From positions 24,102 to 88,101 of the forward strand of contig DIFI01000021.1 of NCBI GenBank assembly GCA_002419055.1: 64,000 bases of DNA, written 5' to 3'. This document shows positions 8,260 through 49,466 of the stretch, piece by piece. The notes below the pieces were generated by a model that saw nothing but the letters and a program-made list of their open reading frames with translations, had not been told where the DNA came from and ran no database searches. The stretch's first letter is position 1, and every line of letters begins with the position of its first letter. The DNA is from Peptococcaceae bacterium UBA5752 (GTDB lineage Bacteria; Bacillota; Dehalobacteriia; UBA4068). The position numbers and the translations under genes are program-made.

Positions 8260-9687
8260 ATGAAGAAGTTAAAAAAGACGGGCCTGTTTTTCTGCGTCTT
8301 GGTGGCAATTTTGATCCCTACTATGTCCTGGGCGGGAGCAACAAGTAGTCTCGATATTACCGGCCCCTGTTACGAGATGCTTTCACCCACCAACAGCGCT
8401 ACTGAGATGGCAGTTACCTGGTGGGATGCGCTGGAGGTAAACACAGCCTCTGTGCAATACAGCACCAGTTCGAACTTTAGCAGTGGTGTTTTCAGTGTTG
8501 CAGCTACCTTATCCAAAAACGATACCACTAACGGATATAGCGCTTTTGCGGCAACGATGACCAATCTTACCGCTGATACTACTTATTATTACCGCGTTGG
8601 TAATGTCACCGCTTGGAGCGATACCAATAGTTTTACAACCGGTGATGCAGCCTCGGCCAGCAGCCTTTCCATCATGTATCTGGGCGATGCCCAGTATGCA
8701 AGCTATAATGCCGCAGTAGAGGAGTATGCTACCTGGGGTAGTTTGATCAATGGCGCATATACAAAATTTCCCAATCTTGATTTTGCGTTAATGGGCGGTG
8801 ATTTAGTTAGTCTAGGTCAGTCGGCTGTCGATTGGCAGCGTTTCTACAATAATGCTAGTCCGGTATTTTCCAAATTGCCTGTATTAGCAGTGCCCGGCAA
8901 CCATGAAAGCAATGCAACTTCCGGCAAGCCGGAGCTGTTCCTGAAACTGTTCGATTTGCCGACCAACGGCCCCACAGGTTTTGAAGAGGAATTCTATTCC
9001 TATGATTACGGAAACTGTCATATCGTTTGTTTGAGCAGCAGCATATTCCTCGATGAGCAATTAGCAGCCGGCACTATGACCGAAGCTGACTTCGACACGA
9101 TTAAGCAGTGGATTGCCAGTGATTTGGCTGATTCCGATGCAACCTGGAAGATTGTGGTCATGCACCATCCTGCTTATGCGGTAGTCAGCGACGACACTGC
9201 TGTTGATGTATTGGCGAACTGGGCGCCGGTTTTTGTCAATGCACAGGTAGACTTGGTCTTATGTGGTCATCAGCATGTTTATATGCGTACCGAAGCGATT
9301 AAGGGCGTTACCTATGTGATGGGCGTATCCGGCAGCAAGTTTTATGCGCCGGCTACTGTGTCCTATTCTGAGTGTATGATCGGCTATACCAGCAATTATG
9401 AAATCATTAACGCTGATAGCAACAGTTTGACGGTAACGGCTTATGATTCTACTGGTACCAGTTTGGATACAGTGACGATTAAACCAAAAAATAGGACCAT
9501 CACGCCGACTTGGCCTGAGGATATTGTCGGTGACCTCAACGGCGACGGGTCTATTACCTCTGCCGATGTAACACTACTGATTAGCGCGATTTTAACCAAT
9601 GCTGCTTATTCCACTGTCATGGATGTAAATGATGATGGAAAAGTAAACATCTGTGACGCTCATCAGCTTAGCTTAAGCTTACTATAA
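8260..9687 (+). CDS. Purple-acid-phosphatase-like metallophosphoesterase with C-terminal dockerin
   Basis: AAGGAG RBS and a signal peptide. Fn3-like PAP N-domain (TTYYYRVGN). Metallophos motifs GDAQY, GGDLVS, GNHE, MHHPAY, CGHQH. C-terminal DLNGDGSITSADVTLL and DVNDDGKVNICDAHQL dockerin repeats. Confidence 0.85.
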   Translation: MKKLKKTGLFFCVLVAILIPTMSWAGATSSLDITGPCYEMLSPTNSATEMAVTWWDALEVNTASVQYSTSSNFSSGVFSVAATLSKNDTTNGYSAFAATMTNLTADTTYYYRVGNVTAWSDTNSFTTGDAASASSLSIMYLGDAQYASYNAAVEEYATWGSLINGAYTKFPNLDFALMGGDLVSLGQSAVDWQRFYNNASPVFSKLPVLAVPGNHESNATSGKPELFLKLFDLPTNGPTGFEEEFYSYDYGNCHIVCLSSSIFLDEQLAAGTMTEADFDTIKQWIASDLADSDATWKIVVMHHPAYAVVSDDTAVDVLANWAPVFVNAQVDLVLCGHQHVYMRTEAIKGVTYVMGVSGSKFYAPATVSYSECMIGYTSNYEIINADSNSLTVTAYDSTGTSLDTVTIKPKNRTITPTWPEDIVGDLNGDGSITSADVTLLISAILTNAAYSTVMDVNDDGKVNICDAHQLSLSLL

Positions 9688-9704
9688 GGAAGGGGGATCA
9701 GCAA

Positions 9705-11402
9705 ATGCGAGTGAGTGATAAACTAAAAATCTTCGTTTTACTGTCTGTAATCTTTTGTTTGATATTGCTGCCGACTGTATGCTTGGCCGCCGGCACCAAA
9801 GTGTCGGATGCCGTCAATAATATATTCGTCTATGCTGACGATGCCACCGGCGCTCAGGTTTTACTTAAAGTCATTCCATTATCTACCCTTAAGTCAATGT
9901 CACATGGTAGTGATGGTACAGCCAATACCGACTATTACGGTTCTTTTCTTGACGCCTATAAAACGCCGACTTACTTAGAAGGGCAGGGCGTTACCATACC
10001 TGAGCTGCTTACCTATGTCAAAAAGAACTCTTTGGTGGCAGATGTTGGTTCGCTGACTTATGCCGGATCGGATATACTATATTTTACTTGCTGCGACGGC
10101 GCTTCCGTTAATTTTACCTATGATGCGCTGTATGGTACTGAATTAAACCCGGTGAACCGCTATTATTATCCAGCCTTATATGATTACTGGGACAGTGAAA
10201 ACGTTGAAGTGCCGGATGCTGATGAGGCTACAGTTTTGGCAAGCGGCATTTCGGCACCGGTTTATCTTGCAACCGTATCCAAGGGCGGACGGGTATTTGC
10301 CAGCGCCGGCGGCACAAATATTTCCTCTTATGTTACAGCTAACGATGGCGTGGTCAGCGGTTGCCTGGCCGGTCAACTTACGGATGAAGATGCGCTGCGT
10401 TTAATCTTTCCGCAGACTGCCAGCGATATTCAAAGTAGTACCGATACATTAAGTTTTATCAAAAAATGGGTGTATAAGGTCCGGCTGAAAACAGCTGAGA
10501 CTTCACCGATTGCCTCGCTTGGTACGATCAGCAATCCCACATGTACCTATACCCTGGACGGCACCACACTCACTATCACCATGAGTTGTGAGGATGCAAA
10601 TGCTTCTCTCTATTATTCAACCATCGGTGGTTATACCGCCACGCCGGTAAACCTCTATACCGAGCCGATAACCGTGGAAAATTACGATACCAGCAAGCCA
10701 TTCACCATCAGCGTGATGGCGGTACGGGAAGGTTATGTGAACAGTACTGCTATATCCGCAAGCTCCGCCAATTATACCGATGGCGAGGGCGCGCCCAGTT
10801 TCACCTATGCTTTAACTTCATCCGATGCTACGCCCACGGTTGGCACCGCTTTTGATCTTTCGGTGACCCTTGCTGCCGATAAAGATTATACGCTTTACGG
10901 TGCCGAATACCGCGTTTCGGTACCGGCAGCTTATACAGTCAACAGCGTTACTCTCGGCACCGGCTGGCAATATGGTACAGCCACTTACGCTAATGAAGCG
11001 ACAATTGTCACATTTACCTATCTGAATACTACAGGGACTGCTGAAACCGCAACTACTGCCGTGCCGGTGGGGTCAATTAATTTGATTCCGGTTACGGCAG
11101 GTGATACTTCCGTTACGGTCAGTGAAGCGATTGTAACCAAAAGCGATGCTACCGCTTACACCAATATTACAGCCGCAGATTCAAGTTTCACGGTTGAGAG
11201 CAATATCACGCTCGGCGATGTGGATAGTGACAGTTATATCACTATGGGCGATGCCCTGCAAGTATGTAAGACTGTGGCTAAGGTAGTGACTCTAAACGAT
11301 GATCAGAAAAAAGCGGCTGATGTAGACAAAGACGGCTATATCACCATGAGCGACGCACTACTCATCTGCAAATATGTAGCCAAAGTTATCAGCGAATTTT
11401 AG
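9705..11402 (+). CDS. Secreted adaptor-like protein: RYYYP-type domain, Fn3/CHB_HEX_C-like, cohesin-like domain, C-terminal dockerin
   Basis: RBS GGAAGGGGGA and a signal peptide. NRYYYPALYD. Cohesin-like FDLSVTLAADKDYTLYGAEYRVSVPAAY...VTFTYLNTTGTAE. Dockerin-like DVDSDSYITMGDALQVCK and DVDKDGYITMSDALLICK. Confidence 0.8.
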   Translation: MRVSDKLKIFVLLSVIFCLILLPTVCLAAGTKVSDAVNNIFVYADDATGAQVLLKVIPLSTLKSMSHGSDGTANTDYYGSFLDAYKTPTYLEGQGVTIPELLTYVKKNSLVADVGSLTYAGSDILYFTCCDGASVNFTYDALYGTELNPVNRYYYPALYDYWDSENVEVPDADEATVLASGISAPVYLATVSKGGRVFASAGGTNISSYVTANDGVVSGCLAGQLTDEDALRLIFPQTASDIQSSTDTLSFIKKWVYKVRLKTAETSPIASLGTISNPTCTYTLDGTTLTITMSCEDANASLYYSTIGGYTATPVNLYTEPITVENYDTSKPFTISVMAVREGYVNSTAISASSANYTDGEGAPSFTYALTSSDATPTVGTAFDLSVTLAADKDYTLYGAEYRVSVPAAYTVNSVTLGTGWQYGTATYANEATIVTFTYLNTTGTAETATTAVPVGSINLIPVTAGDTSVTVSEAIVTKSDATAYTNITAADSSFTVESNITLGDVDSDSYITMGDALQVCKTVAKVVTLNDDQKKAADVDKDGYITMSDALLICKYVAKVISEF

Positions 11403-11463
11403 CTTAGTTGATTATACTCTGCCTTAATATAGATCAAAAAAAAAATTTAAGGAGTGATAGAAA

Positions 11464-14400
11464 GTGTTACAAAAGTTGAAGAAAAAGAACCTGACGGTGT
11501 TAGTAATCTTCATAATGGTTCTAGCCCTTTGCGTTGCTTTACCGATTCTGGCGACAGCGGAAGGCACTGCGACCGTTACAGTGGGCAGTACGACTACAGC
11601 AGCAGCTCCCGGAGATAGTATAACCATCCCCGTTGTCATTACCAGTAACCCCGGTATTACTGCATATGGATTTGCGATTTCGTATGATAGCTCAAATTTG
11701 ACATTGGATAGTATTTCGAAAACGGATAATGATTCGAATACGACCGATCTTTGCACTTCCGGTAGTTTTACCCCCAATACAGCATCTGCAGGCACTGGCT
11801 ATGTTAGCTGGCTGGATGGCGGTGCGGATATTACCGGCACCGGAAATTTGTTCTATTTAACTTTCACCGTCAAGAATACTGCGATGGGTGGCAATTATGC
11901 TGTTTCCTGCACTTTAACCGACGGTAGTGCTGCTAACTGCAAAAACTATGCCGGGTCAAATGTTGGCGTATCCTTCACTGACGGCATTATTGAGGTAGTA
12001 GCACCCGACACAACCGCTCCGACAATGACGAGCGTTGCTCCTGGCGAGGGCTTAGTAGCGCTGGGCGCTAGCGATAACCTCGTGCTTACCGTAACGGCAG
12101 ATGACGACGCGGCGCTTTCCGAGCTGGAGATCGACCACAGCATGGAGGGCACGCTGCCGGAATTCAGCGTCTACGCCGACATTGCGAACCCCTACGGCAC
12201 GGCAGATGATAAAGCTCAGTTTGAATCTGCCGGTGTTTCCGTAACCTACGCTGATGGCGTTTGGACGATTGATTTTGGCAGCACGATAACGAATACTATA
12301 GTGAATAACGGCGGCATCACCTTTTACATGGTGCTCAAGGATACGTCCGGCAACAGCTGGGGCAGCATGAGCCCGACTACTGCCGAGAATACCTATGCCT
12401 ATACCATAGCGCGGGACACAACCGCTCCGACTATGACAAGCGTTGAACCGGCTGAAGGCGCGGTGGAGCTGGACGCCAGCGAGGACTTTGTACTGACCGT
12501 GACGGCGCATGACGATATTGAGCTGTATGAGCTTGAGATCGACCACAGCATGTCAAGCACATTGCCGGAATTCAGCGTCTACGCCAACAGCGAAAACCCC
12601 TATGGCACAGCTGAGGATAAAGCTGAATTTGAAGCCGCCGGTGTTTCCGTGACCTACGGCGGCGGCGTCTGGACGATCGATTTTGGCGATACAGCAACGG
12701 ATGCTTTCGTGGCAAACGGCGGCATAACCTTATACATAGTAGTCAAGGATATGGCCGGCAACAGCTGGGGCAGCATGAGCCCGACTACTGTCGAGAATAC
12801 ATATGCATACACGATTACCCGCAAATACATTGCGGCGGCTAATTTCACTGACGGAGTCTATGCAATTACATCGGGCGGCGAATATAAGCTCGCTACTGAT
12901 GCGGCAGGGACGATTCAGATCAGCACCACCGATCCGGTGACTATTAGCGGCAATGGCACGACCGGCACCGCTAACAGTGGCCTTAGCATTGATAATACCG
13001 TAGCTGGTGCGGACCTGACCATAGAAGACCTCTATATCACCGGCGCAGTTACCGGTTCCGGTATGGTTGAATTTACCGGCAAAGACAATAAACTGTCGCT
13101 TTCCGGTGTCAGCACCCTTCAACGTATCGGAGGATCAGTTTGGGGCAATGCACTGATCCATGTGCCTGCGACTGCTGATCTGACCATTGACGGCGACGGT
13201 ACAGTCTATCTGGCCCAAGATGGCGACGGTGCTGCCATCGGCGGCAATCCTTCCGAGATCAACGGTAATATCACTATTAACGGAGGCGAAATCTTCTGCC
13301 GCAGTAATAAAACAGGCTCCAGCATCGGCGGCGGCCAGAGCGCTAACGGTGGTAATATTACCATCAACGGCGGTGAACTCAATATATTCCACAACGCGCG
13401 CGGCGCCATTTTGGGCGGCGGCGGCTATAGTGGCAGTTTAGTAGGCAACGGCGGTACTGTAACCATGACCGGCGGCAATGTCTCCCTGTTTGTAAATTTC
13501 ACAGGCGCGGCCATTGGCGGCGGCGGCGGGAGCAATTCTGCTCTGGAGCAGGACGGAGGAGACCTTTATATCACCGGCGGCTCGCTCAAAACCTATATCA
13601 ACAGCAATGCACTCAGTTTCTGGGGACTCACAACCGAAGGCGTCACGCCTGTTATCATCACCGCGGATAAATCAACCGGCGTGGGCGGAAATGCAGTCCA
13701 TCTGCTTACTATGGATGTGAGCGGTGTTACGGCCAATGACACCGGCGCCGCTTATGTGGCTTATCTGGATAATGAAACCACCGATCCCATTTATTCCGGT
13801 GGGTTGCACAGCTATGCTTATACCGGTACCAGCACCAACGCTATGACATATTGGCAGAAGTCTACCACGGATAACAACCTCTACCTCTATGTCACCGGTG
13901 AGAATCATACTGTCACCGTTAATGATCAAAAATTCAATGTCACTTGGGATTCCGGCACTTCCGGCTTCAGTGTTGCGGCGGCTCCTAAAATCTGGGATGG
14001 CACTGCGAATACAGGTTGGTATAATACCACTGATACGGAATTCCATCTCACCATGGGTAACCAACTGGCCGGACTTGCGCAGATCGTCAACGGTACGGCA
14101 ACCGGCATCACTCAAGACAGTTTCAGCGGCAAGACCGTCAATATTGATAACGATATCTATCTTAACGACGGTACAACCAGTAATAATTGGACGCCTATCG
14201 GTGATATTACACACCATTTTGACGGTGTGTTTAACGGCGGCGGCTACAATATATACGGTATGAAAATTATTGCAACAAAGGGCTATGCCGGTTTATTCGG
14301 CAACGTATCCGGTACAGTTAAGAACTTTAAACTTTACGGATCTGTTACTATTAATTCGGCGATTGACGGCGATATTGCAAAAGGTAGTAAAACTAATACC

Positions 14401-17400
14401 GATAACGACTTTGTCGGTGCGGCAGTTGGTAAACTCAATGCGGGCGGTACGATCAGTAACGTCATCAACTATGCTCCCATTGAAGCCAAGGAATGCATGA
14501 ACGTCGGCGGTATCGTCGGTTTTGTCGGCACGCCCGTCACGTATGGGACGAAATCAGACGCTTATGCCGAATATAACTCCAACCCCTCCGGCAGTAACAC
14601 CTATGTGCTCAACTGCGGCAATAACGCCACTGTACATGGTTTTTACAAGCTGGGCGGTATCGCCGGTGAAAGCGCGGGTATTGTTATGTACTGCTACAAT
14701 ACCGGCTACATCCTCCCGCACATGCACGGTTCCGGCGGCGGCTGGGGCGGCATTGTCGGACGCAACGGCAACAACAACACAGCGACCGAGGTCGGCACCA
14801 TTGCCTATTGCTGGAACAGCGGTACAGTTACCGACAACGGCATGAACGATGACCACAACGAGACGATCAAGTGGTATGGCGGTATCACTGCCTTTTGCAA
14901 CAGTAAGTCTTCTGTACACAACTGTTACAACATCGGCGCAATTCCTGCCGGACGCAACACTTTTTCGTCCATCATTGGTAACTGCGAAAGCACTATGGTT
15001 TACAACAACTGTTCGCTGATTTCCACCAGCATCAATAGCGACAGCACATATGAGAAAAACTTGGGCATACAGTTTGAGGAATCTGATTTCAAGAGCGCTG
15101 CCAATACGGATACCTCTATATTGACTGTGCTGGGCCCTGTTTTTGTCGCTGATACCGGAAATATTAACAACGGATATCCTGTCCTGCGCTGGCAGGCGGG
15201 CAGCAGCGCCGAACCGACGCTAACCTCTGTTTCGTTATTCTCGGTGCCGACAAAAATCGCTTATTATGAGCTGGAGACCTTTAATCCTGCAGGTATGAAG
15301 CTTAAAGCAACATACAGTGACGGAACTTATGCAATATTATCGGGCGGCTTCACTTATCCCACCGATCCGTTGTCTGACAGCACTAACAGCGTTACCGTTA
15401 GCTATGGCGGTTTTGATATTACTCAAGCCATCACGGTCTACAATCTCGATTCTATCGCTGTTACCACACAGCCTACCAAAACGGTTTACAATGCCACCGA
15501 TTTATTTAACAGATCCGGTATGGTAGTTACCGTTTACTACAGCGATAATACTTCGAAGGTGATTTATTCATATACTTATCCTACAACTCCTTTAACTGAT
15601 GACATGACCAGCGTTACTATCGGCTATGGCGACAAGACCACTACCCAGCCGATCACGGTCAATGCTTTAGGCTTGACCGTGATCGCGGTAACAACTGTGC
15701 CGACCAAGACTTTCTATCTCCCCGACGAATCATTTGATAATACCGGTATGGTAGTTAATGCAACATATAACAGTGCAGTGGTACAGCCTTTGGCTGCGGA
15801 AGACTACGTCGTCACTCCCGCCTCACTGACCATTGGTACAACTGCGGTCACCATCAGCTTTACCTATCTTGGCGTAACTCAGACCGCGTCTACTCCGGTG
15901 ACAGTGATATCTGCAACACCTGCCTTGGTTGACGGGTATTATCAGATAGTGAGCGCAGATGATCTTCGCTGGTTCGCCGATTATGTGAGCGTCCAGGGCA
16001 ATACAACTGCCTGCGCCAAGTTGGTCAATGATATTACCCTCACCTCTGATTGGACGCAGCCGATCGGTAACAGTACCAATAAGTTTGCCGGTACTTTTGA
16101 CGGTAACGGCAAGACGATCAGCGGCCTAGATAATGCTGCGGTGACCACACAGAATTTTGGTCTTATTGGCTATGGCTTAGGGGCTACTGTCAAAGACCTT
16201 ACAGTCGGCGGCGAAATCAGCACGACCGCCTCTAATACCGGTTTGGTTGCCGGTTGGGCCGACGGTTGCACTTTTACCAATATCACAGCCAACGGTTCGC
16301 TGACCAGAGCCAGCGGTACCCTAAACAATACTGCCGGTATCACAGGTTACGCCTGCAATGCCAGCGTATTAACTAACTGCGTGAACAATGCCGCTATTAC
16401 CTCCGGCGGTCAGTATACAGGCGGTATCGCCGGCAGCGCAGACGGCGCGACCAGCTTCTCCGGCTGTATCAATAACGGTGTGATCAATACTACCCATCGG
16501 TATATAGGTGGCATCGTCGGTTCGTTCGGCGGTACGGGCAACATCACATCCTGTATCAATAAAGGTGCAGTTACTGCCACCTATAACGTTGGTGGTATCG
16601 CCGGTAGATATAACTCAACCGGCAGCATGGAGAATTGCTATAACAGCGGTGCCATCGTCGCTACCTTATCATCAACATCTACTGCTTACGCTGCAGGCGG
16701 CGTGATCGGTTATTTCGGCGGCGCCGGTACTATAGACACCTGCTACAACAGCGGTGATGTCACCGGCGCTATCGGTAATGTCGGCGGTGTGGTCGGCTGT
16801 ATGTATGCGGCCAATAGCATACTGACCAACAGTTATAATACCGGCGACGTCTGTTACACCGGCAATGCCACTACTCCTTGCGTGGGCGGCGTTGTTGGCG
16901 CGACCAATGATGTTAGCTGCACGATCCAGAACTGTTACAACCGCGGCGCGGTAACCTTTGCTACAACCAAACCTTTGATCGGCTCCGTCGTCGGTACACC
17001 CAAGATCGGATATACCGCCATCAGCAATAACTATTATCTCAACACCACTTCTGCTGATGCGACATCTACAGCCAAAACTGCCGCTGAACTGAAGAATCTT
17101 GCTGCCACTTTGGGCGCAAGCTACAAGGCAGGCGGCATTTCACCTATCTTCACCTGGCAGCCGGATGAAGTATTTACCTCCGCAGCACCGGTAGTGAACG
17201 TAGATACTGTTACCGCCGATGTTCCGGATACGATCGTCATTGGCGCTAATGCCAATGTGGAAATCAACGCTTCGGCGGTGACTGTGGAAGATATCAACAC
17301 ATCAAATGTTTCAATTCCCGCAGCTTTGGTTGAGAATCTGGACAATGCCCAATCAGTCACCATTGTGACCAACATGGGTAATATCACATTTGACAACGCT

Positions 17401-19356
17401 GCTCTTGCTGATATTGTGGATAACGCTACCACGTCCCTGACCTTAGGCCTCGATCGAACCAGCGATGCGGACGGTGTTACGGTATATGAGCTGACGCTCA
17501 AAGACAGCGGCGGCAATAATGTCTTTACCGAAGGCTCCGCTACAGTCACATTGCCTTATACCCTGGCCGAAGCAAAAAGCCCTGATAGCGTCAAGGTTTT
17601 CTATGTGGCGAGCAACGGTACCAAGACAGAAGTGACCAATTGTACCTATGCCAACGGTTACGTCACTTTCACAGTTGAGCACTTCTCCACATACAGCATC
17701 GAGGCAGACAGCACCACAATCTCCGCAATTACCGCTGCCACTAATGCCAACGCCGGTGAAACCTTTACCGTCGATGTCAAGGTCAGCGGCGATGCAGCTC
17801 AGCAGTTTGCTTCCATGTCCGCCAATCTCAATTATGATAAGACCAAAGTAGCATTTGTAAGCTTTGCTGCGGGGGCCGGTACAACTGAAGCCAGCGCCTA
17901 TGATAATACAACTACCGCCAAGGTAAATATCCTCGAAAGCGGTGCGGATAAGACCATCGGCGCCGACGGCTTTGTGATCGGCACAATCACTTTCCGTGCC
18001 TTGACTGCCATCAGTACCGGCAATAGTGTTGCAGCTTTCTCTATCAGTGACGGTATGGTTGGTGATTCCGGTACACCGACTCCTGCGGTAAGCGCTTTGA
18101 GCGGTGCCAATATTTCCGTCAATTTGCATAATCTGGCGGTTATCTTCCAACAAGGCACGGGCAACACGCTGGCCGCTTCTACCGCATATGCCAAGTACAA
18201 TGCGGCGGGTCTCTTCGCCAGCAATGCCTATACCGATACTTTCACTATTCCTACTCCGGCAGCCTCTGATGGCTACCGCCTGGCGGATATCCTCTGGAAT
18301 AACGGTACCAACAATTACACTTCCGAACAGGTTGCGGCATTGGCTATAACCGCCAATGCGACCATGACTGCGCAATCAGTCAAAACCTACGCTGTAAGTT
18401 TCTATAATAGCGACGCCGCCCAGATAGGCAGCACCCAGAATATAGATACCGGCCTGACTGCCACTGCTCCGGCTGATCCTACTGCCCCGGCGGGCACTGC
18501 TTTTGTCGGTTGGTTTATAGCAGCCTCCAGCGACGCCACCTATGACGGCATTGCCACTCTCTACAGTAAAGCCCAGATTGACTTAGCTGCGGTGACTGCC
18601 GATACCATTTACAAAGCCTATTATTCAGATAATGAGTATGCGATCACCGTTCCTGTCGATGTGACCGTCGTCAGCGGCGTTACCGACAGTAAAGCCAAGC
18701 ACAACACTGACGTAGTCTTCACTGTCAGCACCACCACTGTGGATCAAGGTTATACCATCACTGTTTCCTATAAGGTAGGTACGGCTGATGCAGTAATCAT
18801 CACGAAGGATGCAGAGAACAAGTACACCATCCCCGGCTCTGCTATAACTGATGCGACAGTGATCACAGTCCAGAAAACGATCAACGGCACAATCAGCTAT
18901 ATCAACTATGACAATTACAAAGGCGCACCGGCCAATTATAAAGTGGCTCTGCTGACACTTAGCGACAGCGCTCCTGCGGATAGCAAATACCAGTATGACG
19001 GACAGGATATGTTTTTGGCTCAACCGGTCAATACTACTGCCGCATATGGTACCGGCGCCTACGTATTCTTCGTCGCCTCTGATGAGGATGCGGTGACTAC
19101 GTTATCCAAGATTGCGATTGTCAGCGGCACACAGCTGACTGTCGACTATGACGGAAACGTCAACGGTCTGAGTGAGGTAGAAATCAATGACGCGCAGTTG
19201 GTCTATGATTTGTATAATAATAACACCAATTATTCGTCCGACTTCAATCTCGCCACGATGCTGATGCGCTTTGAAGCCGATGTCAACGGCGACGGCACAA
19301 TCGGCGTCAACGACATCAGAATGATCTACAGCACTATCCGCGGTATCACTGAGTAA
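11464..19356 (+). CDS. Giant 2630-aa secreted multidomain protein: cohesin-like, 2x137-aa tandem repeats, Gly-rich beta-helix, 2 GLUG modules, Ig-like repeats, second cohesin-like, dockerin
   Basis: GTG start 9 nt after AAGGAG. Signal peptide. N-terminal cohesin-like GDSITIPVVITSNPGITAYGFAISYDSSNLTLDSI...NLFYLTFTVKNTA. Repeated GG[IV][AV]G...C[YI]N.GA[IV] GLUG periodicity. C-terminal DYDGNVNGLSEVEINDAQL / DVNGDGTIGVNDIRMI dockerin. A single uninterrupted ORF. Confidence 0.85.
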   Translation: MLQKLKKKNLTVLVIFIMVLALCVALPILATAEGTATVTVGSTTTAAAPGDSITIPVVITSNPGITAYGFAISYDSSNLTLDSISKTDNDSNTTDLCTSGSFTPNTASAGTGYVSWLDGGADITGTGNLFYLTFTVKNTAMGGNYAVSCTLTDGSAANCKNYAGSNVGVSFTDGIIEVVAPDTTAPTMTSVAPGEGLVALGASDNLVLTVTADDDAALSELEIDHSMEGTLPEFSVYADIANPYGTADDKAQFESAGVSVTYADGVWTIDFGSTITNTIVNNGGITFYMVLKDTSGNSWGSMSPTTAENTYAYTIARDTTAPTMTSVEPAEGAVELDASEDFVLTVTAHDDIELYELEIDHSMSSTLPEFSVYANSENPYGTAEDKAEFEAAGVSVTYGGGVWTIDFGDTATDAFVANGGITLYIVVKDMAGNSWGSMSPTTVENTYAYTITRKYIAAANFTDGVYAITSGGEYKLATDAAGTIQISTTDPVTISGNGTTGTANSGLSIDNTVAGADLTIEDLYITGAVTGSGMVEFTGKDNKLSLSGVSTLQRIGGSVWGNALIHVPATADLTIDGDGTVYLAQDGDGAAIGGNPSEINGNITINGGEIFCRSNKTGSSIGGGQSANGGNITINGGELNIFHNARGAILGGGGYSGSLVGNGGTVTMTGGNVSLFVNFTGAAIGGGGGSNSALEQDGGDLYITGGSLKTYINSNALSFWGLTTEGVTPVIITADKSTGVGGNAVHLLTMDVSGVTANDTGAAYVAYLDNETTDPIYSGGLHSYAYTGTSTNAMTYWQKSTTDNNLYLYVTGENHTVTVNDQKFNVTWDSGTSGFSVAAAPKIWDGTANTGWYNTTDTEFHLTMGNQLAGLAQIVNGTATGITQDSFSGKTVNIDNDIYLNDGTTSNNWTPIGDITHHFDGVFNGGGYNIYGMKIIATKGYAGLFGNVSGTVKNFKLYGSVTINSAIDGDIAKGSKTNTDNDFVGAAVGKLNAGGTISNVINYAPIEAKECMNVGGIVGFVGTPVTYGTKSDAYAEYNSNPSGSNTYVLNCGNNATVHGFYKLGGIAGESAGIVMYCYNTGYILPHMHGSGGGWGGIVGRNGNNNTATEVGTIAYCWNSGTVTDNGMNDDHNETIKWYGGITAFCNSKSSVHNCYNIGAIPAGRNTFSSIIGNCESTMVYNNCSLISTSINSDSTYEKNLGIQFEESDFKSAANTDTSILTVLGPVFVADTGNINNGYPVLRWQAGSSAEPTLTSVSLFSVPTKIAYYELETFNPAGMKLKATYSDGTYAILSGGFTYPTDPLSDSTNSVTVSYGGFDITQAITVYNLDSIAVTTQPTKTVYNATDLFNRSGMVVTVYYSDNTSKVIYSYTYPTTPLTDDMTSVTIGYGDKTTTQPITVNALGLTVIAVTTVPTKTFYLPDESFDNTGMVVNATYNSAVVQPLAAEDYVVTPASLTIGTTAVTISFTYLGVTQTASTPVTVISATPALVDGYYQIVSADDLRWFADYVSVQGNTTACAKLVNDITLTSDWTQPIGNSTNKFAGTFDGNGKTISGLDNAAVTTQNFGLIGYGLGATVKDLTVGGEISTTASNTGLVAGWADGCTFTNITANGSLTRASGTLNNTAGITGYACNASVLTNCVNNAAITSGGQYTGGIAGSADGATSFSGCINNGVINTTHRYIGGIVGSFGGTGNITSCINKGAVTATYNVGGIAGRYNSTGSMENCYNSGAIVATLSSTSTAYAAGGVIGYFGGAGTIDTCYNSGDVTGAIGNVGGVVGCMYAANSILTNSYNTGDVCYTGNATTPCVGGVVGATNDVSCTIQNCYNRGAVTFATTKPLIGSVVGTPKIGYTAISNNYYLNTTSADATSTAKTAAELKNLAATLGASYKAGGISPIFTWQPDEVFTSAAPVVNVDTVTADVPDTIVIGANANVEINASAVTVEDINTSNVSIPAALVENLDNAQSVTIVTNMGNITFDNAALADIVDNATTSLTLGLDRTSDADGVTVYELTLKDSGGNNVFTEGSATVTLPYTLAEAKSPDSVKVFYVASNGTKTEVTNCTYANGYVTFTVEHFSTYSIEADSTTISAITAATNANAGETFTVDVKVSGDAAQQFASMSANLNYDKTKVAFVSFAAGAGTTEASAYDNTTTAKVNILESGADKTIGADGFVIGTITFRALTAISTGNSVAAFSISDGMVGDSGTPTPAVSALSGANISVNLHNLAVIFQQGTGNTLAASTAYAKYNAAGLFASNAYTDTFTIPTPAASDGYRLADILWNNGTNNYTSEQVAALAITANATMTAQSVKTYAVSFYNSDAAQIGSTQNIDTGLTATAPADPTAPAGTAFVGWFIAASSDATYDGIATLYSKAQIDLAAVTADTIYKAYYSDNEYAITVPVDVTVVSGVTDSKAKHNTDVVFTVSTTTVDQGYTITVSYKVGTADAVIITKDAENKYTIPGSAITDATVITVQKTINGTISYINYDNYKGAPANYKVALLTLSDSAPADSKYQYDGQDMFLAQPVNTTAAYGTGAYVFFVASDEDAVTTLSKIAIVSGTQLTVDYDGNVNGLSEVEINDAQLVYDLYNNNTNYSSDFNLATMLMRFEADVNGDGTIGVNDIRMIYSTIRGITE
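12004..12825 (+). repeat. Two tandem ~411-nt (137-aa) near-identical coding repeats inside the giant gene
   Basis: PDTTAPTMTSVAPGEG...NTYAYTIA and RDTTAPTMTSVEPAEG...NTYAYTIT. High amino-acid identity; the nt-level similarity is visible by eye. Confidence 0.7.
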
Positions 19357-31941: not shown

Positions 31942-31988
31942 CATTGCAGTAAATAATTATAGAGCCAAAAGATGTGGTGGTAGATATC

Positions 31989-33827
31989 ATGGACGGTTTC
32001 ATCAATATCAACAAAGAGCCTGGCATCTCTTCTCATGGTGTCGTGGCCGCCGTGAGGCGGCTTTTGCATTGTAAGGCTGGCCATTGCGGTACGCTTGATC
32101 CTGCGGCCGGCGGAGTGCTGCCGGTTTGCATCGGCAAAGCGACCAGACTGGCCGAATATATCAGCGGCGGCGTTAAACGTTATCGCGGCACGGTAGTTTT
32201 CGGCATAGAAACAGACAGTTACGATGCGATGGGTGCTGAGGTCGGTCGAGCCAGCGCCGCGCATTTAAACCGCCAGGATATTGAAGCATTGCTGCCGCAA
32301 TTCATAGGTGAAATCGACCAGATACCGCCTGTGGTATCGGCCCTAAAAAGCGGTGGCGTACCGCTTTATAAGCGCTTTCGCCGTGGAGAGGATATCGAAG
32401 TTGCTGCCCGCAAGGTGCGGATTTATGATATTGAGCTTAAAAATTTTCGGCCGGGCGTTGAAACAGCCGAGGCAGAAATTGAGGTCGAATGCGGGCAGGG
32501 GACATATATCCGTTCGATTGCCCACGATTTGGGACAGCTTTGCGGTTGTGGCGCTCACCTTGCTCATCTACAGCGTTTGCAAGTTGGCGATTTTAGGATT
32601 GAAACGGCGCTGACGCTTGAACGATTGGCGGAAATTATTGCTGCGGGTGAAGACGATTGGTTATTGCCGATGCAGTATCCATTGGCTAATTGGCCGCGAT
32701 TTGTGGTTACCGATCAGCAACTGCGTCAGGTTTTGCATGGCAACCCTTTATGCTTAGGGCCTGAAACAGAACCGGTGGAGTTGTGTTTAGTGGAAAACAG
32801 TGACGGAGTATTACTTGGCATAGCTAATATTCTTAACAATGATACTAAGGAAGGTGCAGTACTGAATATGACAAAGGTATTGGCTGATCCGCCTGCTGCC
32901 AAAAAATATGATGCGGTGGTAATAGGTAATTTTGACGGAGTGCATTTGGGACATCGTGCTTTATTTAGTGAGCTTTATCGGATTAAACAGCAAACAGGGG
33001 CTGTGACGGCGGCTGTGACGTTCGATCCTCATCCGATGGCATTGATCAAAGGCAAAATGCCGCCGTTACTCAATGCTGCGGAAGCAAAAATTGCGCTGAT
33101 CAAAAAATATTTTGCTGTTGATGAAGTAGTGGTGTTACCTTTTGATCAGCAACTGATGAACAGCACGCCGCAGCAATTTGTGGATAGGATAATTTGTTGC
33201 GTACTCAAAGCATCGCAGGTAATCGTTGGCTATAATTTTAGTTTCGGCGCCGGTGGACAAGGAAACGCCCAGATGCTCAAAGAACTGTGTGAACCCCGCG
33301 GCATCAAAGTGATGATCATAGATCAAGTGACGTCACCTTATGGCGATATCTCATCATCCAATATTCGTGAGCGTCTGTCGCGCGGCGATATGGAAGCGGC
33401 TAATTATATGCTTGGCTATTGGTATACATTGGCCGGTGAGGTTGTTCGCGGCAAAAGTATTGGCCGTACACTAGGTTTTCCAACGGCTAATTTTTATCCG
33501 GCGACTGATAGAGTTTATATACCCTGCGGCGTATATGCCGTTCGTGTAGAACATAATAGAATAACTTATGATGGTGTAGCCAATTACGGTTACAAACCGA
33601 CGGTTGGCAATTTCCTGCAGCCATCGATTGAGGTGCATATTTTCAATCAAGATATCACGCTCTACGGCGAAAATATCAAAGTTTGTTTTGGTGAATTTAT
33701 TCGTCCCGAACATAAATTTGACAATCTTGATCAACTGAGAGAGGAAATCGGCAGAAACAAGGAAACAGCCAAAGATTTTTTAATTACTCAAAATGCAGAT
33801 AAACACTTGCCAAAGCCGATCAAATAG
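31989..33827 (+). CDS. In-frame fusion of tRNA pseudouridine55 synthase TruB with bifunctional riboflavin kinase/FAD synthetase RibF
   Basis: The ORF is uninterrupted. TruB motifs GHCGTLDP through the PUA-like end run to about aa 295. RibF follows: VVIGNFDGVHLGH ... the riboflavin-kinase domain. A possible internal start (MTKV) sits at 32868. Confidence 0.75.
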   Translation: MDGFININKEPGISSHGVVAAVRRLLHCKAGHCGTLDPAAGGVLPVCIGKATRLAEYISGGVKRYRGTVVFGIETDSYDAMGAEVGRASAAHLNRQDIEALLPQFIGEIDQIPPVVSALKSGGVPLYKRFRRGEDIEVAARKVRIYDIELKNFRPGVETAEAEIEVECGQGTYIRSIAHDLGQLCGCGAHLAHLQRLQVGDFRIETALTLERLAEIIAAGEDDWLLPMQYPLANWPRFVVTDQQLRQVLHGNPLCLGPETEPVELCLVENSDGVLLGIANILNNDTKEGAVLNMTKVLADPPAAKKYDAVVIGNFDGVHLGHRALFSELYRIKQQTGAVTAAVTFDPHPMALIKGKMPPLLNAAEAKIALIKKYFAVDEVVVLPFDQQLMNSTPQQFVDRIICCVLKASQVIVGYNFSFGAGGQGNAQMLKELCEPRGIKVMIIDQVTSPYGDISSSNIRERLSRGDMEAANYMLGYWYTLAGEVVRGKSIGRTLGFPTANFYPATDRVYIPCGVYAVRVEHNRITYDGVANYGYKPTVGNFLQPSIEVHIFNQDITLYGENIKVCFGEFIRPEHKFDNLDQLREEIGRNKETAKDFLITQNADKHLPKPIK

Positions 33828-47140: not shown

Positions 47141-47917
47141 ATGTTATTTGCTATCGATTGCGGCAATACCCATATTGTGGCCGGTATTTATGATGAAAGC
47201 AAGCTTGTTCGCTATTGGCGCTTGGGCAGTGATATCAAAAAAACAGAAGACGAATATATGGCAACATTCTGTGAGCTGTTCCGCTCAGAACAAATTGAGG
47301 CTGAAAGTATTGATGCGATGATCATCGCATCTGTAGTACCTGATATAACTTTTGTGATGAATAAATTGGCGCGTAAATATTTACAGCTTAAGCCAACGAT
47401 AGTTGGTAGCCGCACCGATACCGGCATTACTATTGATTACGACTATCCGGAAGAAGTAGGCGCCGACCGGATAGTTAATGCAGTTGCCGCGCACCGGATT
47501 TATGGCGGCTGTTTAATTGTGGTTGATTTTGGCACAGCCACTACGTTTGACTGTGTTTCCGAAGACGGCTGTTATTTGGGCGGAGCGATCGCGCCCGGCA
47601 TTGAAATATCGAAGCGGGCCTTGTTTGAGCATGCCGCCAAGCTGGCAAATATCCCGTTGGAGCGGCCGGAGCATGTGATTGGCAAAAATACTACCGAGAG
47701 CCTCCAATCCGGTATTCTCTGGGGCTTTGCCTCGCAGGTAGACGGAATAGTGGCGCGTATGAGCGAGGAATTAGCGCAAAAGCCGCGGGTGATTGCCACC
47801 GGCGGGCTGGCGCGGATCATTTCCGCATATAGCGAAAGTATTGACAGCGTTAATCCATTGCTGACGCTTGAGGGGTTGCGGTTTATCTATGAGCGTGGAA
47901 TGGCAGCGGTTGAATAG
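47141..47917 (+). CDS. coaX: Type III pantothenate kinase
   Basis: MLFAIDCGNTH; GADR; AGGAGGGG RBS. Confidence 0.9.
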   Translation: MLFAIDCGNTHIVAGIYDESKLVRYWRLGSDIKKTEDEYMATFCELFRSEQIEAESIDAMIIASVVPDITFVMNKLARKYLQLKPTIVGSRTDTGITIDYDYPEEVGADRIVNAVAAHRIYGGCLIVVDFGTATTFDCVSEDGCYLGGAIAPGIEISKRALFEHAAKLANIPLERPEHVIGKNTTESLQSGILWGFASQVDGIVARMSEELAQKPRVIATGGLARIISAYSESIDSVNPLLTLEGLRFIYERGMAAVE

Positions 47918-47931
47918 ATTACCATTATAAG

Positions 47932-47960
47932 ATAAAAACAAAAGCAAAGCTATATTGGCC
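47932..47960 (+). terminator. Terminator-like hairpin after coaX
   Basis: AAGCAAAGC...GCCTTGCTT + T6 (one mismatch). Confidence 0.4.
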
Positions 47961-48339
47961 TTGCTTTTTTACTTAATATACTTATTTGTACAATTAAAGC
48001 AAATGAATTATCATTTTGCTTAATAGGGAAAAATTTTAGATTTAATTAACCGGGAATTTAAAGCATCTGCTTACCCTTTTACTTTCTTAAATGTTAGACC
48101 TTGGAGAAATTATTTGGATGAAATTAAAAATGTGATACAATTAGATGCAAATAGAATAAGAACTTATATATTTTTGATGTTGATGATGATACCATGTAAA
48201 CCTGCTTGTCTAAAAGTAGTGTGATGAATGGTTGATTTTTTTTATTTCATGCCGATATACAAATAGGATAGGATGAGCTTTTTTTCATGGTAAATCCGGT
48301 AAATAGCATGAGGTTTATTACTAGGGAGGGTTAATATAT

Positions 48340-49197
48340 ATGAAAAATGTTGCTATCGTAGGCGCGGGGCATGGTGGTACGTCTATTCTTAAATCATTGC
48401 AGGGAATAGCAGCCATAAATGTGATGGGTATATGTGATTTAGATGATAATGCCCCGGGAATTGTCATGGCTCGCAGACTTGGCGTAGATACCTACTCTGA
48501 TATAAAGAAGATTGTGACGCTTCCGTTGCTGGATCTATTGATAGAAGTCACCGGTGTGCCAAAAGTACAAGAGCTGATCAACCAACATAAAAGTGAACAT
48601 GTTGCTATAATCGATTCTCATGGTGCCAACCTGATGATGAATATTGTTGAGGCCCGTGAAGAAATGATTGCCGGACTACATCATGAAGCGGAAAAGCTGG
48701 CAAATCTGTCTACCGAATTATCCAGCACTATGGAAACGGCAACCCAGCTGGTAAAAGAGGTAAGTGGCTATGCCCATGATGTTAACGCCAAAAGTATAGA
48801 ACTAATAGATTCTGCCGGTGAGGCTAACATACAATTAAAAGAAACCGGGGAAGTCTTAGTTATTATCAATAAAATTGCCCAACAAACCAAATTTTTGGGT
48901 CTAAATGCCGCCATTGAAGCAGCTCACAGCGGGGTACACGGTAAAGGTTTTGCGGTTGTGGCCGATGAGGTCAGAAAACTGGCAGAAGATAGCACCGTCT
49001 CGGTATCGAAAATTTCTACGATCTTGTCCAATATTCAAAAATCAGTTGTAGTTATTAACAACGGCGTAAATGAGGCCGCCGTGGTGATACAAAAACAAGA
49101 CCAGCTAACAGATTCGGTCTCCAATAGTATTTATTCGCTGAAATCAATGTCGCAGGAATTGAATACGCTGGCCCAACACCTAGCTCAATTAGCTTAA
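48340..49197 (+). CDS. Soluble MCP-signalling-domain protein with N-terminal Rossmann-like domain
   Basis: AGGGAGGG RBS. N-terminus [15 protein letters not shown]-terminus [37 protein letters not shown] (MCP signature). No TM segments. Confidence 0.75.
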
Positions 49198-49203
49198 ACC
49201 GAA

Positions 49204-49256
49204 GCTAAAAAGCAAGGAAAGCACGGAAGGCAAGGAAAGCAAGGAAAGCAAGGGAA
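49204..49256 (+). repeat. Short tandem repeat (GCAAGGAAA-like x4-5)
   Basis: aaaaagcaaggaaagcacggaaggcaaggaaagcaaggaaagcaaggg. Confidence 0.5.
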
Positions 49257-49260
49257 AAAT

Positions 49261-49370
49261 TGGCGCGGATCATTTCCGCTTATAGTGAGAGCATTGATAT
49301 CGTCAATCCTTTGCTGACGCTTGAGGGGTTGCGGTTTATCTATGAGCGGCCAAGGGCGACGGTTGAATAG
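49261..49370 (+). pseudogene. Duplicated 3'-terminal 110-nt fragment of coaX (about 85% identity to 47808..47917)
   Basis: TGGCGCGGATCATTTCCGC...CTGACGCTTGAGGGGTTGCGGTTTATCTATGAGCG...GGTTGAATAG is shared between the two sites. Confidence 0.7.
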
Positions 49371-49412
49371 GCAGCGGTTGAGATTGTTTCCCTTTAATAT
49401 GCAAGCAAAGAA

Positions 49413-49447
49413 AAAGCAAGGCTAATAAAATAGCCTTGCTTTTTGGC
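49413..49447 (+). terminator. Terminator hairpin, paralogous to the one after coaX
   Basis: AAGCAAGGCTA...TAGCCTTGCTT + T5. Confidence 0.5.
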
Positions 49448-49466
49448 TTAGAACAAAGATTGCTGA

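Follow-up and report, generated by a model that had tools for sequence, protein, structure and literature searches.

A short soluble chemoreceptor with a predicted Rossmann-fold sensor, and a candidate family of Rossmann input domains in bacterial signaling proteins

The stretch of DNA analyzed here (the window: 64,000 nt of contig DIFI01000021.1, assembly GCA_002419055.1, from Peptococcaceae bacterium UBA5752) carries a gene for a 285-aa protein in which a Rossmann-like N-terminal domain (N-domain) is joined to the signaling domain of methyl-accepting chemotaxis proteins (MCPs). An earlier note, made from the letters alone, had singled out this open reading frame (ORF), and our analysis confirmed it, together with its ATG start and an AGGGAGG ribosome-binding site (RBS). 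An identical protein, with the same neighbors, is encoded on a 161-kb JGI metagenome contig (3300002219 SCADCLC_10011851). A search of 5.8 billion proteins identified homologues in more than 100 clusters built at 90% identity; they were 45-84% identical to the 285-aa protein, and almost all were 284-285 aa long. Mean column identity was 67% in an alignment of 41 family sequences. The pairwise ratio of nonsynonymous to synonymous substitution rates (dN/dS, or omega) against relatives was 0.09-0.24 overall, and no segment (N-domain, N-arm, tip or C-arm) reached 0.4. We conclude that the ORF is a real gene, a feature far beyond chance, and that the whole length of the protein is under purifying selection.

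Most of the named homologues belonged to Syntrophomonadaceae (Syntrophomonas zehnderi, S. palmitatica, Thermosyntropha and Ca. Syntrophocurvum); further members were found by scanning genomes, in Moorella mulderi and in Pelotomaculum, Gelria and other Clostridia metagenome-assembled genomes (MAGs). Databases name members of the 285-aa family only 'methyl-accepting chemotaxis protein', and once 'Gfo/Idh/MocA family oxidoreductase'. The latter, P0088 (285 aa; the name is NCBI's), has an MCP signaling domain and no catalytic domain, and its name is probably a misannotation.

The shortness of the window protein, Pfam Rossmann scores below threshold and the oxidoreductase name of P0088 could be taken to indicate a wrongly called ORF, or what is left of a longer MCP or oxidoreductase after truncation and decay. 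However, the 285-aa length is held in more than 100 clusters, omega is low in every segment, the RBS is strong, and both domains were modeled confidently by AlphaFold2 (AF2). The dN/dS values and the conserved length therefore exclude a pseudogene or decaying fragment. With the invariant residues added, this explanation is effectively refuted, and we give it almost no probability.

Table 1. Positions of the chemoreceptor gene, its parts and other features of the window
Feature	Position	Strand	Details
Rossmann-MCP gene	48340..49197	+	285 aa; ATG start; stop codon included
Shine-Dalgarno AGGGAGG	48323-48329	+	10 nt 5' of ATG; read from sequence
Rossmann-fold domain	48340..48615	+	residues 1-92; AF2 model: b1 2-7, aA 11-20, b2 26-32, aB 39-47, aC 55-59, b4 66-69, aD 74-83, b5 89-91
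Glycine-rich loop	48361..48378	+	G8-A-G10-H-G12-G13; GxGxxG fingerprint
D33	48436..48438	+	acidic residue at the C-terminal end of beta-2
Junction helix	48616..48675	+	residues 93-112 (DSHGANLMM...REEM); no C-arm partner
MCP hairpin	48676..49194	+	residues 113-285; N-arm to tip at ~V199, then C-arm
Hairpin-tip motif	48895..48987	+	residues 186-216
Tip substitutions R196H and E199V	48925-48936
Candidate sigma-D/FliA-type -10 box, GCCGATAT	48251..48258	+	perfect match; 82 nt 5' of ATG
Left direct-repeat copy	47807..47975	+	coaX 3' end and terminator
Right direct-repeat copy	49260..49450	+	37-codon coaX pseudo-fragment and palindromic terminator
Palindromic terminator	49411-49444
Tandem 9-nt repeat, AAAGCAAGG	49209-49253		~5 copies; between MCP stop and coaX-tail copy
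TruB-RibF ORF	31974-33827		617 aa
Cell-surface gene cluster	3352-25296		includes 2630-aa ORF (11464-19356)

We ran AF2 on the family alignment. The pLDDT was 89 for the full protein, and 94.4 (pTM 0.86) when the isolated N-domain was modeled as residues 1-112. The modeled sheet was parallel and five-stranded, in a beta-alpha-beta fold of the NAD(P) type, and both Pfam and the model placed a coiled coil directly after the Rossmann fold, with no catalytic domain between. The signature of NAD-type domains was present, comprising the GxGxxG loop and an acidic residue closing beta-2 (D33), at the adenine-ribose ligand site of NAD-binding Rossmann folds; an acidic residue there points to NAD over NADP. 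Thirteen residues (I6, G8, G10, G12, G13, D33, G40, A44, E69, T71, G72, V76 and A96) were invariant in the 41 members; of these, G8, G10, G12, G13, D33, E69, T71 and G72 make up the putative nucleotide-binding fingerprint. The dinucleotide-binding-like GxGxxG that the earlier note had read in residues 4-17 was thus borne out by four invariant glycines (G8, G10, G12 and G13) in a modeled Rossmann fold, with binding itself predicted.

Sequence and structure searches agreed with this assignment. Residues 3-86 of the window protein gave sub-threshold matches (E about 1e-3) to Pfam NAD_binding_3 and GFO_IDH_MocA. Among 33 family members, GFO_IDH_MocA matched 33/33 (best 2.4e-8), NAD_binding_3 32/33 and CoA_binding 18/33, a model that presumably also covers the Rossmann domain of Rex; TrkA_N matched weakly in only 3/33. 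In Foldseek searches of the PDB, the top match to the N-domain was DmpF, an NAD+/CoA-dependent acetaldehyde dehydrogenase (1nvm; E 5.6e-6, TMq 0.68), followed by other NAD(P) Rossmann domains; the fold searches returned Rossmann domains only. The N-domain profile matched the PDB sequences of DmpF (1.9e-5), DapB (4e-4) and Rex (9e-4), and the full sequence had a weak N-terminal match there to an acylating acetaldehyde dehydrogenase. A PAS or Cache fragment, looked for in the N-domain as a known MCP sensor, gave no Pfam match in the window protein at E<=1, nor did globin or CZB domains.

The enzymes that best match residues 1-100 in fold or sequence (DmpF, GFO/IDH/MocA, DapB and homoserine dehydrogenase) share the beta-alpha-beta topology, the glycine loop and an (E/D)xTG-type motif after beta-4. 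They differ in having a sixth strand and a C-terminal catalytic or dimerization domain, both missing here, and are only 15-28% identical to the N-domain. KTN/RCK (TrkA_N) domains, which regulate K+ transporters and channels, have no specific sequence relationship to it. An oxidoreductase identity was rejected, given the missing catalytic domain and the sub-threshold Pfam scores. As modeled, the N-domain is a minimal five-stranded dinucleotide-binding fold with the classical GxGxxG...D signature; it lies within the NAD(P) Rossmann superfamily and outside every enzyme family and Rex.

In the model, one continuous helix (residues 93-284) leaves the Rossmann domain and runs into the N-arm of the MCP hairpin. 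The helix has hydrophobic residues at 3-4 spacing from about L98 onward, and its first segment, the junction helix, conserves A96, M99, M100, R106, E107 and M109. Pfam MCPsignal (PF00015) matched residues 142-283 (E 4e-23; 82.6 bits against a cut-off of 34.6), and NCBIfam matches were limited to the signaling part of assorted chemoreceptors. PDB sequence matches included the T. maritima receptor TM1143 (2ch7; 5.5e-14), Tsr and Tm14 (3g67). Foldseek with the full model ranked 9a72_A, an integrative model of B. subtilis YfmS with CheW, ahead of Tm14 and Tsr. The MCPsignal match and the fold model support the atypical fusion of a Rossmann-like N-terminus to an MCP domain that had been proposed from the sequence.

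Taking V199, the equivalent of the E in AGExG, as the tip residue, we counted 86 aa (12.3 heptads) in the C-arm and 106 aa (15.1 heptads) on the helical N-side. The paired part therefore spans about 24 heptads, in keeping with the 'only a short coiled-coil' of the earlier note, while residues 93-112 extend past the bundle to the Rossmann domain. We take this length to be that of 24H, the shortest recognized chemoreceptor class. Alignment to TM1143, a 44H receptor, was essentially gap-free over residues 107-282, and the window protein thus resembles the portion nearest the tip in a Firmicute/Thermotoga-type receptor. YfmS (a B. subtilis orphan of 286 aa) and Tm14 are likewise soluble and of similar size, and are the closest structural matches of the MCP part (9a72_A: E 2.4e-7, 31% identity, 171 columns; 3g67: TMt 0.69). 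The likeness to YfmS is confined to the hairpin (171 of 286 columns), and to our knowledge neither YfmS nor Tm14 contains a Rossmann domain.

The maximal 19-residue Kyte-Doolittle mean was 1.52, and it fell on the beta-4 region of the Rossmann domain, a predicted strand; the protein therefore has no transmembrane (TM) helix. Pfam gave no HAMP match at E<=1. The protein thus lacks TM segments, HAMP and TM-associated domains, as the earlier note had stated, and has the topology of cytoplasmic (class IV) receptors.

We then considered the N-domain apart from its MCP partner, searching its profile against 1.84 billion cluster representatives (50% identity clusters). There were 1590 matches at E<=1e-3, 816 at <=1e-10 and 23 at <=1e-30. 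The matches are family-specific, since true dehydrogenases reached only ~1e-5 against a PDB set 10,000-fold smaller. Output domains were counted in the 118 best representatives of at least 200 aa; these contained MCPsignal (76), PAS (~21), HisKA (16), HATPase_c (15), REC (8), Sigma54_activat (5), GAF (5) and GGDEF (2). The N-domain was nearly always at the extreme N-terminus, and some proteins carried 2-3 copies in tandem.

The architectures are diverse. P0190 is an N-domain-HisKA-HATPase-REC-REC protein with its DHp ~22 residues past the N-domain, whereas one or more N-domains precede PAS-HisKA-HATPase(-REC) in P0217, P0200, P0248, P0130 and P0121. P0145 and P0150 are N-domain-PAS-Sigma54_activat-HTH_8 proteins, P0155 is an MCP of 494 aa, and GGDEF is present in P0235 and P0253. 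Tandem Rossmann input domains before PAS-HisKA-HATPase were seen in P0121 (811 aa; three copies), P0130 (763 aa; two copies), P0133, P0147 and P0246. Eight positions (G8, G10, G13, D33, A38, A44, T71 and G72) were at least 90% conserved across the 118 representatives, whatever the output type. D33 was aspartate in 64/64 MCP-type, 11/12 histidine kinase (HK)-type, 5/5 sigma-54-type and 2/2 GGDEF-type domains. Proteins with the N-domain occur in Desulfobaccales, Omnitrophota and Firmicutes, among other taxa, under generic names such as 'ATP-binding protein' and 'PAS domain S-box protein'. Neither Pfam nor NCBIfam gave a match to a model dedicated to the N-domain, and our literature search found no description of a Rossmann-MCP or of a Rossmann input domain.

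The N-terminal position, the varied fusions, the tandem duplication and the invariant putative ligand contacts are typical of a signaling input (sensor) domain, which the N-domain therefore appears to be. We regard the window protein as a chemoreceptor whose sensor belongs to an undescribed class. The novelty lies in the use of the Rossmann fold as a modular input to chemoreceptors, kinases, enhancer-binding proteins and cyclases. The N-domain might instead be a ligand-free structural cap or dimerization module, making the protein a sensor-less array component such as T. maritima Tm14 (3g67). Sensor-less soluble receptors of this kind exist, and glycine-rich turns are needed for Rossmann folding alone. 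However, D33, T71 and G72 stay invariant in MCP, HK, sigma-54 and GGDEF contexts alike, and the domain is placed N-terminally in many signaling architectures, both typical of ligand-binding inputs; moreover, a mere cap has no need of a ribose-binding acidic residue. We consider a cap very unlikely.

We tentatively propose that the window protein is a soluble, dimeric, methylation-independent chemoreceptor whose Rossmann sensor, probably for NADH/NAD+, modulates CheA via CheW for redox or energy taxis; this may well be its function, and we hold the proposal short of conviction. The N-terminal 92 residues would be a minimal Rossmann domain that has lost its catalytic partner and serves as a cytoplasmic ligand sensor. 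NADH/NAD+ would be the likeliest ligand, with the Rossmann domain acting as it does in Rex, the redox repressor of Gram-positive bacteria. Like all MCPs the protein would be dimeric, its two Rossmann domains flanking a parallel two-helix stalk formed by residues 93-112. Binding of NADH rather than NAD+ would re-orient the Rossmann domains and alter the packing of the stalk, and this change would travel along the coiled coil to the tip and modulate CheA through CheW. Without methylation sites, the receptor would adapt via its array neighbors or ligand turnover, as Aer does. In fatty-acid-oxidizing syntrophs, the NADH/NAD+ ratio tracks local H2 and formate, being dependent on their removal, and so would report the proximity of a partner; the outcome could be taxis towards partner methanogens, a speculation consistent with PMC11087674. 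These results support the idea, raised in the earlier note, of a soluble redox or NAD(P)H transducer, within which it is the identity of the ligand, the dimer mechanism, the coupling to CheA and CheW and the biological role that we infer.

Known systems offer partial precedents. In Rex, the Rossmann domain is coupled to an N-terminal winged-helix DNA-binding domain, whereas here it is itself N-terminal, is five-stranded, and continues as a helix into an MCP hairpin (in paralogues, HK, sigma-54 or GGDEF outputs). The window protein has no DNA-binding domain, and its weak similarity to Rex is restricted to the Rossmann part. It is no Rex member, and by analogy may work like one. Aer and Aer2 (PAS-FAD/haem), HemAT (globin) and H. 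pylori TlpD (CZB) likewise join soluble or cytoplasm-facing sensors to an MCP domain and, as far as is understood, respond to the metabolic state of the cell and not to ligands from outside. As proposed for the window protein, Aer does not depend on methylation. The latter differs from all four in having a Rossmann sensor in place of PAS, globin or CZB, no HAMP domain and a much shorter hairpin (~24 heptads).

Several observations weigh against our proposal, as regards both its ligand and its output. The N-domain has only five strands, and the Pfam Rossmann scores of the window protein (19.4-22.2 bits) lie below the 24-bit gathering cut-off. DmpF, the closest structural relative, uses one site for NAD+ and CoA, and CoA-biosynthesis genes were neighbors in 2/31 loci (coaX in the window and coaD in Syntrophocurvum). 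The same architecture and sensor role could thus serve another ADP-containing metabolite: CoA or acyl-CoA as the main alternative, or else NADP(H), FAD, SAM or a nucleotide second messenger. Such a sensor would report, for example, the acyl-CoA/CoA status of fatty-acid oxidizers. The best sequence and structure matches being CoA-acylating acetaldehyde dehydrogenases, and the CoA_binding matches in more than half of the members surveyed (18/33), favor this explanation. So do the coaX gene adjoining the window gene and, at the Syntrophocurvum locus, an acyl-CoA dehydrogenase/thiolase/ETF cluster as well as coaD beside the family gene. The GxGxxG loop and the acidic residue after beta-2 recognize the ADP-ribose moiety, which is common to several cofactors. 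We consider a ligand other than NADH/NAD+ somewhat unlikely.

With respect to output, no che, fla or other MCP genes were present among the ~40 Pfam-annotated ORFs of the window. Nor were CheW, a receiver or a second MCP found within +/-10 kb at 31 loci of the family, when 559 ORFs were searched by phmmer with E. coli CheW and CheY and by an MCP HMM; the CheW and CheY queries were approximate, and a single-sequence search has limited sensitivity. The sole exception was a CheR gene 8 kb upstream of the family gene in Syntrophocurvum. The candidate -10 box has a TTGA 15 nt upstream and is kept in front of the orthologue at locus L001, 83 nt before the gene. However, CCGATA[AT] occurred upstream in only 4/31 loci, and a sigma-D/FliA promoter was rejected as a regulon marker on this count. 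A sigma-70 promoter scan performed no better than on shuffled sequence.

The protein contains no match to the strict methylation site [ASTG][ASTG]xx[EQ][EQ]xx[ASTG][ASTG], and no methylation consensus proved to be conserved. Its single loose, methylation-like EEMIAG (107-112) lies outside the paired bundle, and A111 is not conserved. There is no C-terminal pentapeptide for CheR tethering, the C-terminus being LAQLA, and in 44H receptors the methylation sites lie farther from the tip than the window protein reaches. 'Methyl-accepting' is probably a misnomer. By profile and fold, the window protein belongs to the MCP signaling family; it is cytoplasmic, its hairpin is unusually short, and it lacks an adaptation region.

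The tip also departs from the norm. The earlier note had called it highly conserved, which holds insofar as the motif is present and the wider family is canonical (EAARxGExGRGFAVVAxEVRxLA). In the window subclade, however, H196 and V199 replace a near-invariant R and E: the window protein shares AAHSGVHG with its two nearest relatives (loci L001 and L037), against AARSGEHG in the family consensus and the near-universal AAR(A/S)GE(x)G. The variant tip is strongly constrained among these three (tip omega 0.016-0.23). Positions 196 and 199 presumably correspond to E. coli Tsr R388 and E391, which we take to matter for contacts in the trimer and for control of the kinase. As a pair, R196H and E199V may be compensatory or may shift the output bias.

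These features would also suit an MCP module that does not steer flagella, feeding instead a Che-like pathway with another output or acting as a CheA-independent coiled-coil regulator. The gene always stands alone, never beside che, fla or other MCP genes; the methylation region is missing; and the tip of the window subclade is altered. A precedent is Tls, a chemoreceptor-like protein reported to have a non-chemotaxis output (PMC12623472). On the other hand, the wider family retains the canonical tip, and YfmS, also a short soluble receptor, has been modeled in complex with CheW. It is common for receptor genes to lie at a distance from che operons, and the family-bearing lineages do possess che and fla genes. 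In S. wolfei, che operons and flagella (Swol_1446-1457) respond in expression to partner organisms (PMC11087674), and Syntrophomonas MAGs are enriched in che/fla genes (PMC4926282). We therefore regard a non-flagellar output as unlikely, and retain chemotactic signaling through CheW and CheA as the proposed role.

The surroundings of the gene provided few further clues. At the 31 loci, it stood alone among varying neighbors, usually with large intergenic gaps and often with a convergent downstream gene. When the ORFs of these loci were clustered all-against-all, the only recurrent neighbor was a gene for a large MEDS and multi-PAS protein (611-1082 aa), within 10 kb in 9/31 loci. This gene lies at 8936-12184 on the minus strand in L007/L018 and occurs at 7 other loci; in two, it is convergent and immediately downstream. 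The recurrence is probably mere synteny of close Syntrophomonas relatives, and a conserved operon partner was rejected on this basis.

In the window, the gene is part of a ~1.3-kb cassette flanked by a direct repeat of 170-190 bp (87% identity over 110 nt), which contains the end of coaX. The palindromic terminator in the right-hand copy probably ends the MCP transcript. The neighborhoods of the gene in the window, L037 and L001 are unlike, so that its position differs even among its closest relatives. The MCP of the window is 84% identical to P0001 (L037), whereas P0321, the PNPase provisionally paired with P0001, is 73% identical to that of the window. Taken together, the coaX repeat, the shifting position and these identities suggest a mobile cassette, which might be integrated, for instance, when a coaX-linked copy undergoes a single crossover. 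The repeat suggests insertion by recombination at coaX, and the differing positions and identities hint at horizontal or intragenomic mobility. Between the MCP stop and the coaX-tail copy, the tandem 9-nt unit AAAGCAAGG is similar to an arm of the terminator stem nearby (AAAAAGCAAGGC).

By Pfam, the window also contains rimP-nusA-infB-rbfA-nrnA-truB/ribF-pnp, gcvT/H/P, lplA, fhs, birA-bioY, coaX, DUF1015, comM and dus, in addition to an ECF transporter and surface SLH/cohesin/dockerin proteins. The source is an uncultured member of the Bacillota, and the PNPase of the window is closest, at 69% identity, to those of Ca. Formimonas and Dehalobacterium. TruB (pseudouridine synthase) and RibF (FAD synthetase, riboflavin kinase) are encoded by a single ORF with no intervening stop, which is either a genuine truB-ribF fusion or a lost stop codon. 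The cell-surface gene cluster encodes Big_2, SLH, cohesin and dockerin domains, and a cellulosome-like cohesin/dockerin system is unusual for such an anaerobe.

Chemoreceptors and two-component sensors are catalogued mainly through their input domains, and a Rossmann-type input has apparently not been described. The N-domain merits a profile of its own, because its members now go by the names MCP, 'ATP-binding protein' and 'PAS domain S-box protein', and in error by 'Gfo/Idh/MocA oxidoreductase'. It is possible, and we advance this more cautiously than the proposal for the window protein, that a large unnamed family of Rossmann inputs wires the state of pyridine nucleotides (or of acyl-CoA) directly into the four major outputs of bacterial signaling (MCP, HK, sigma-54 and GGDEF), and that the MCPs of syntrophs guide an NADH/NAD+ 'redox taxis' towards consumers of H2 and formate. 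If the N-domain binds NAD(H), it would link cytoplasmic redox poise in strict anaerobes directly to motility, phosphorelay, sigma-54 transcription and c-di-GMP, making it a signaling-level counterpart of Rex. For syntrophs living at the thermodynamic limit, this would provide a concrete mechanism for finding, and staying near, their partner methanogens.

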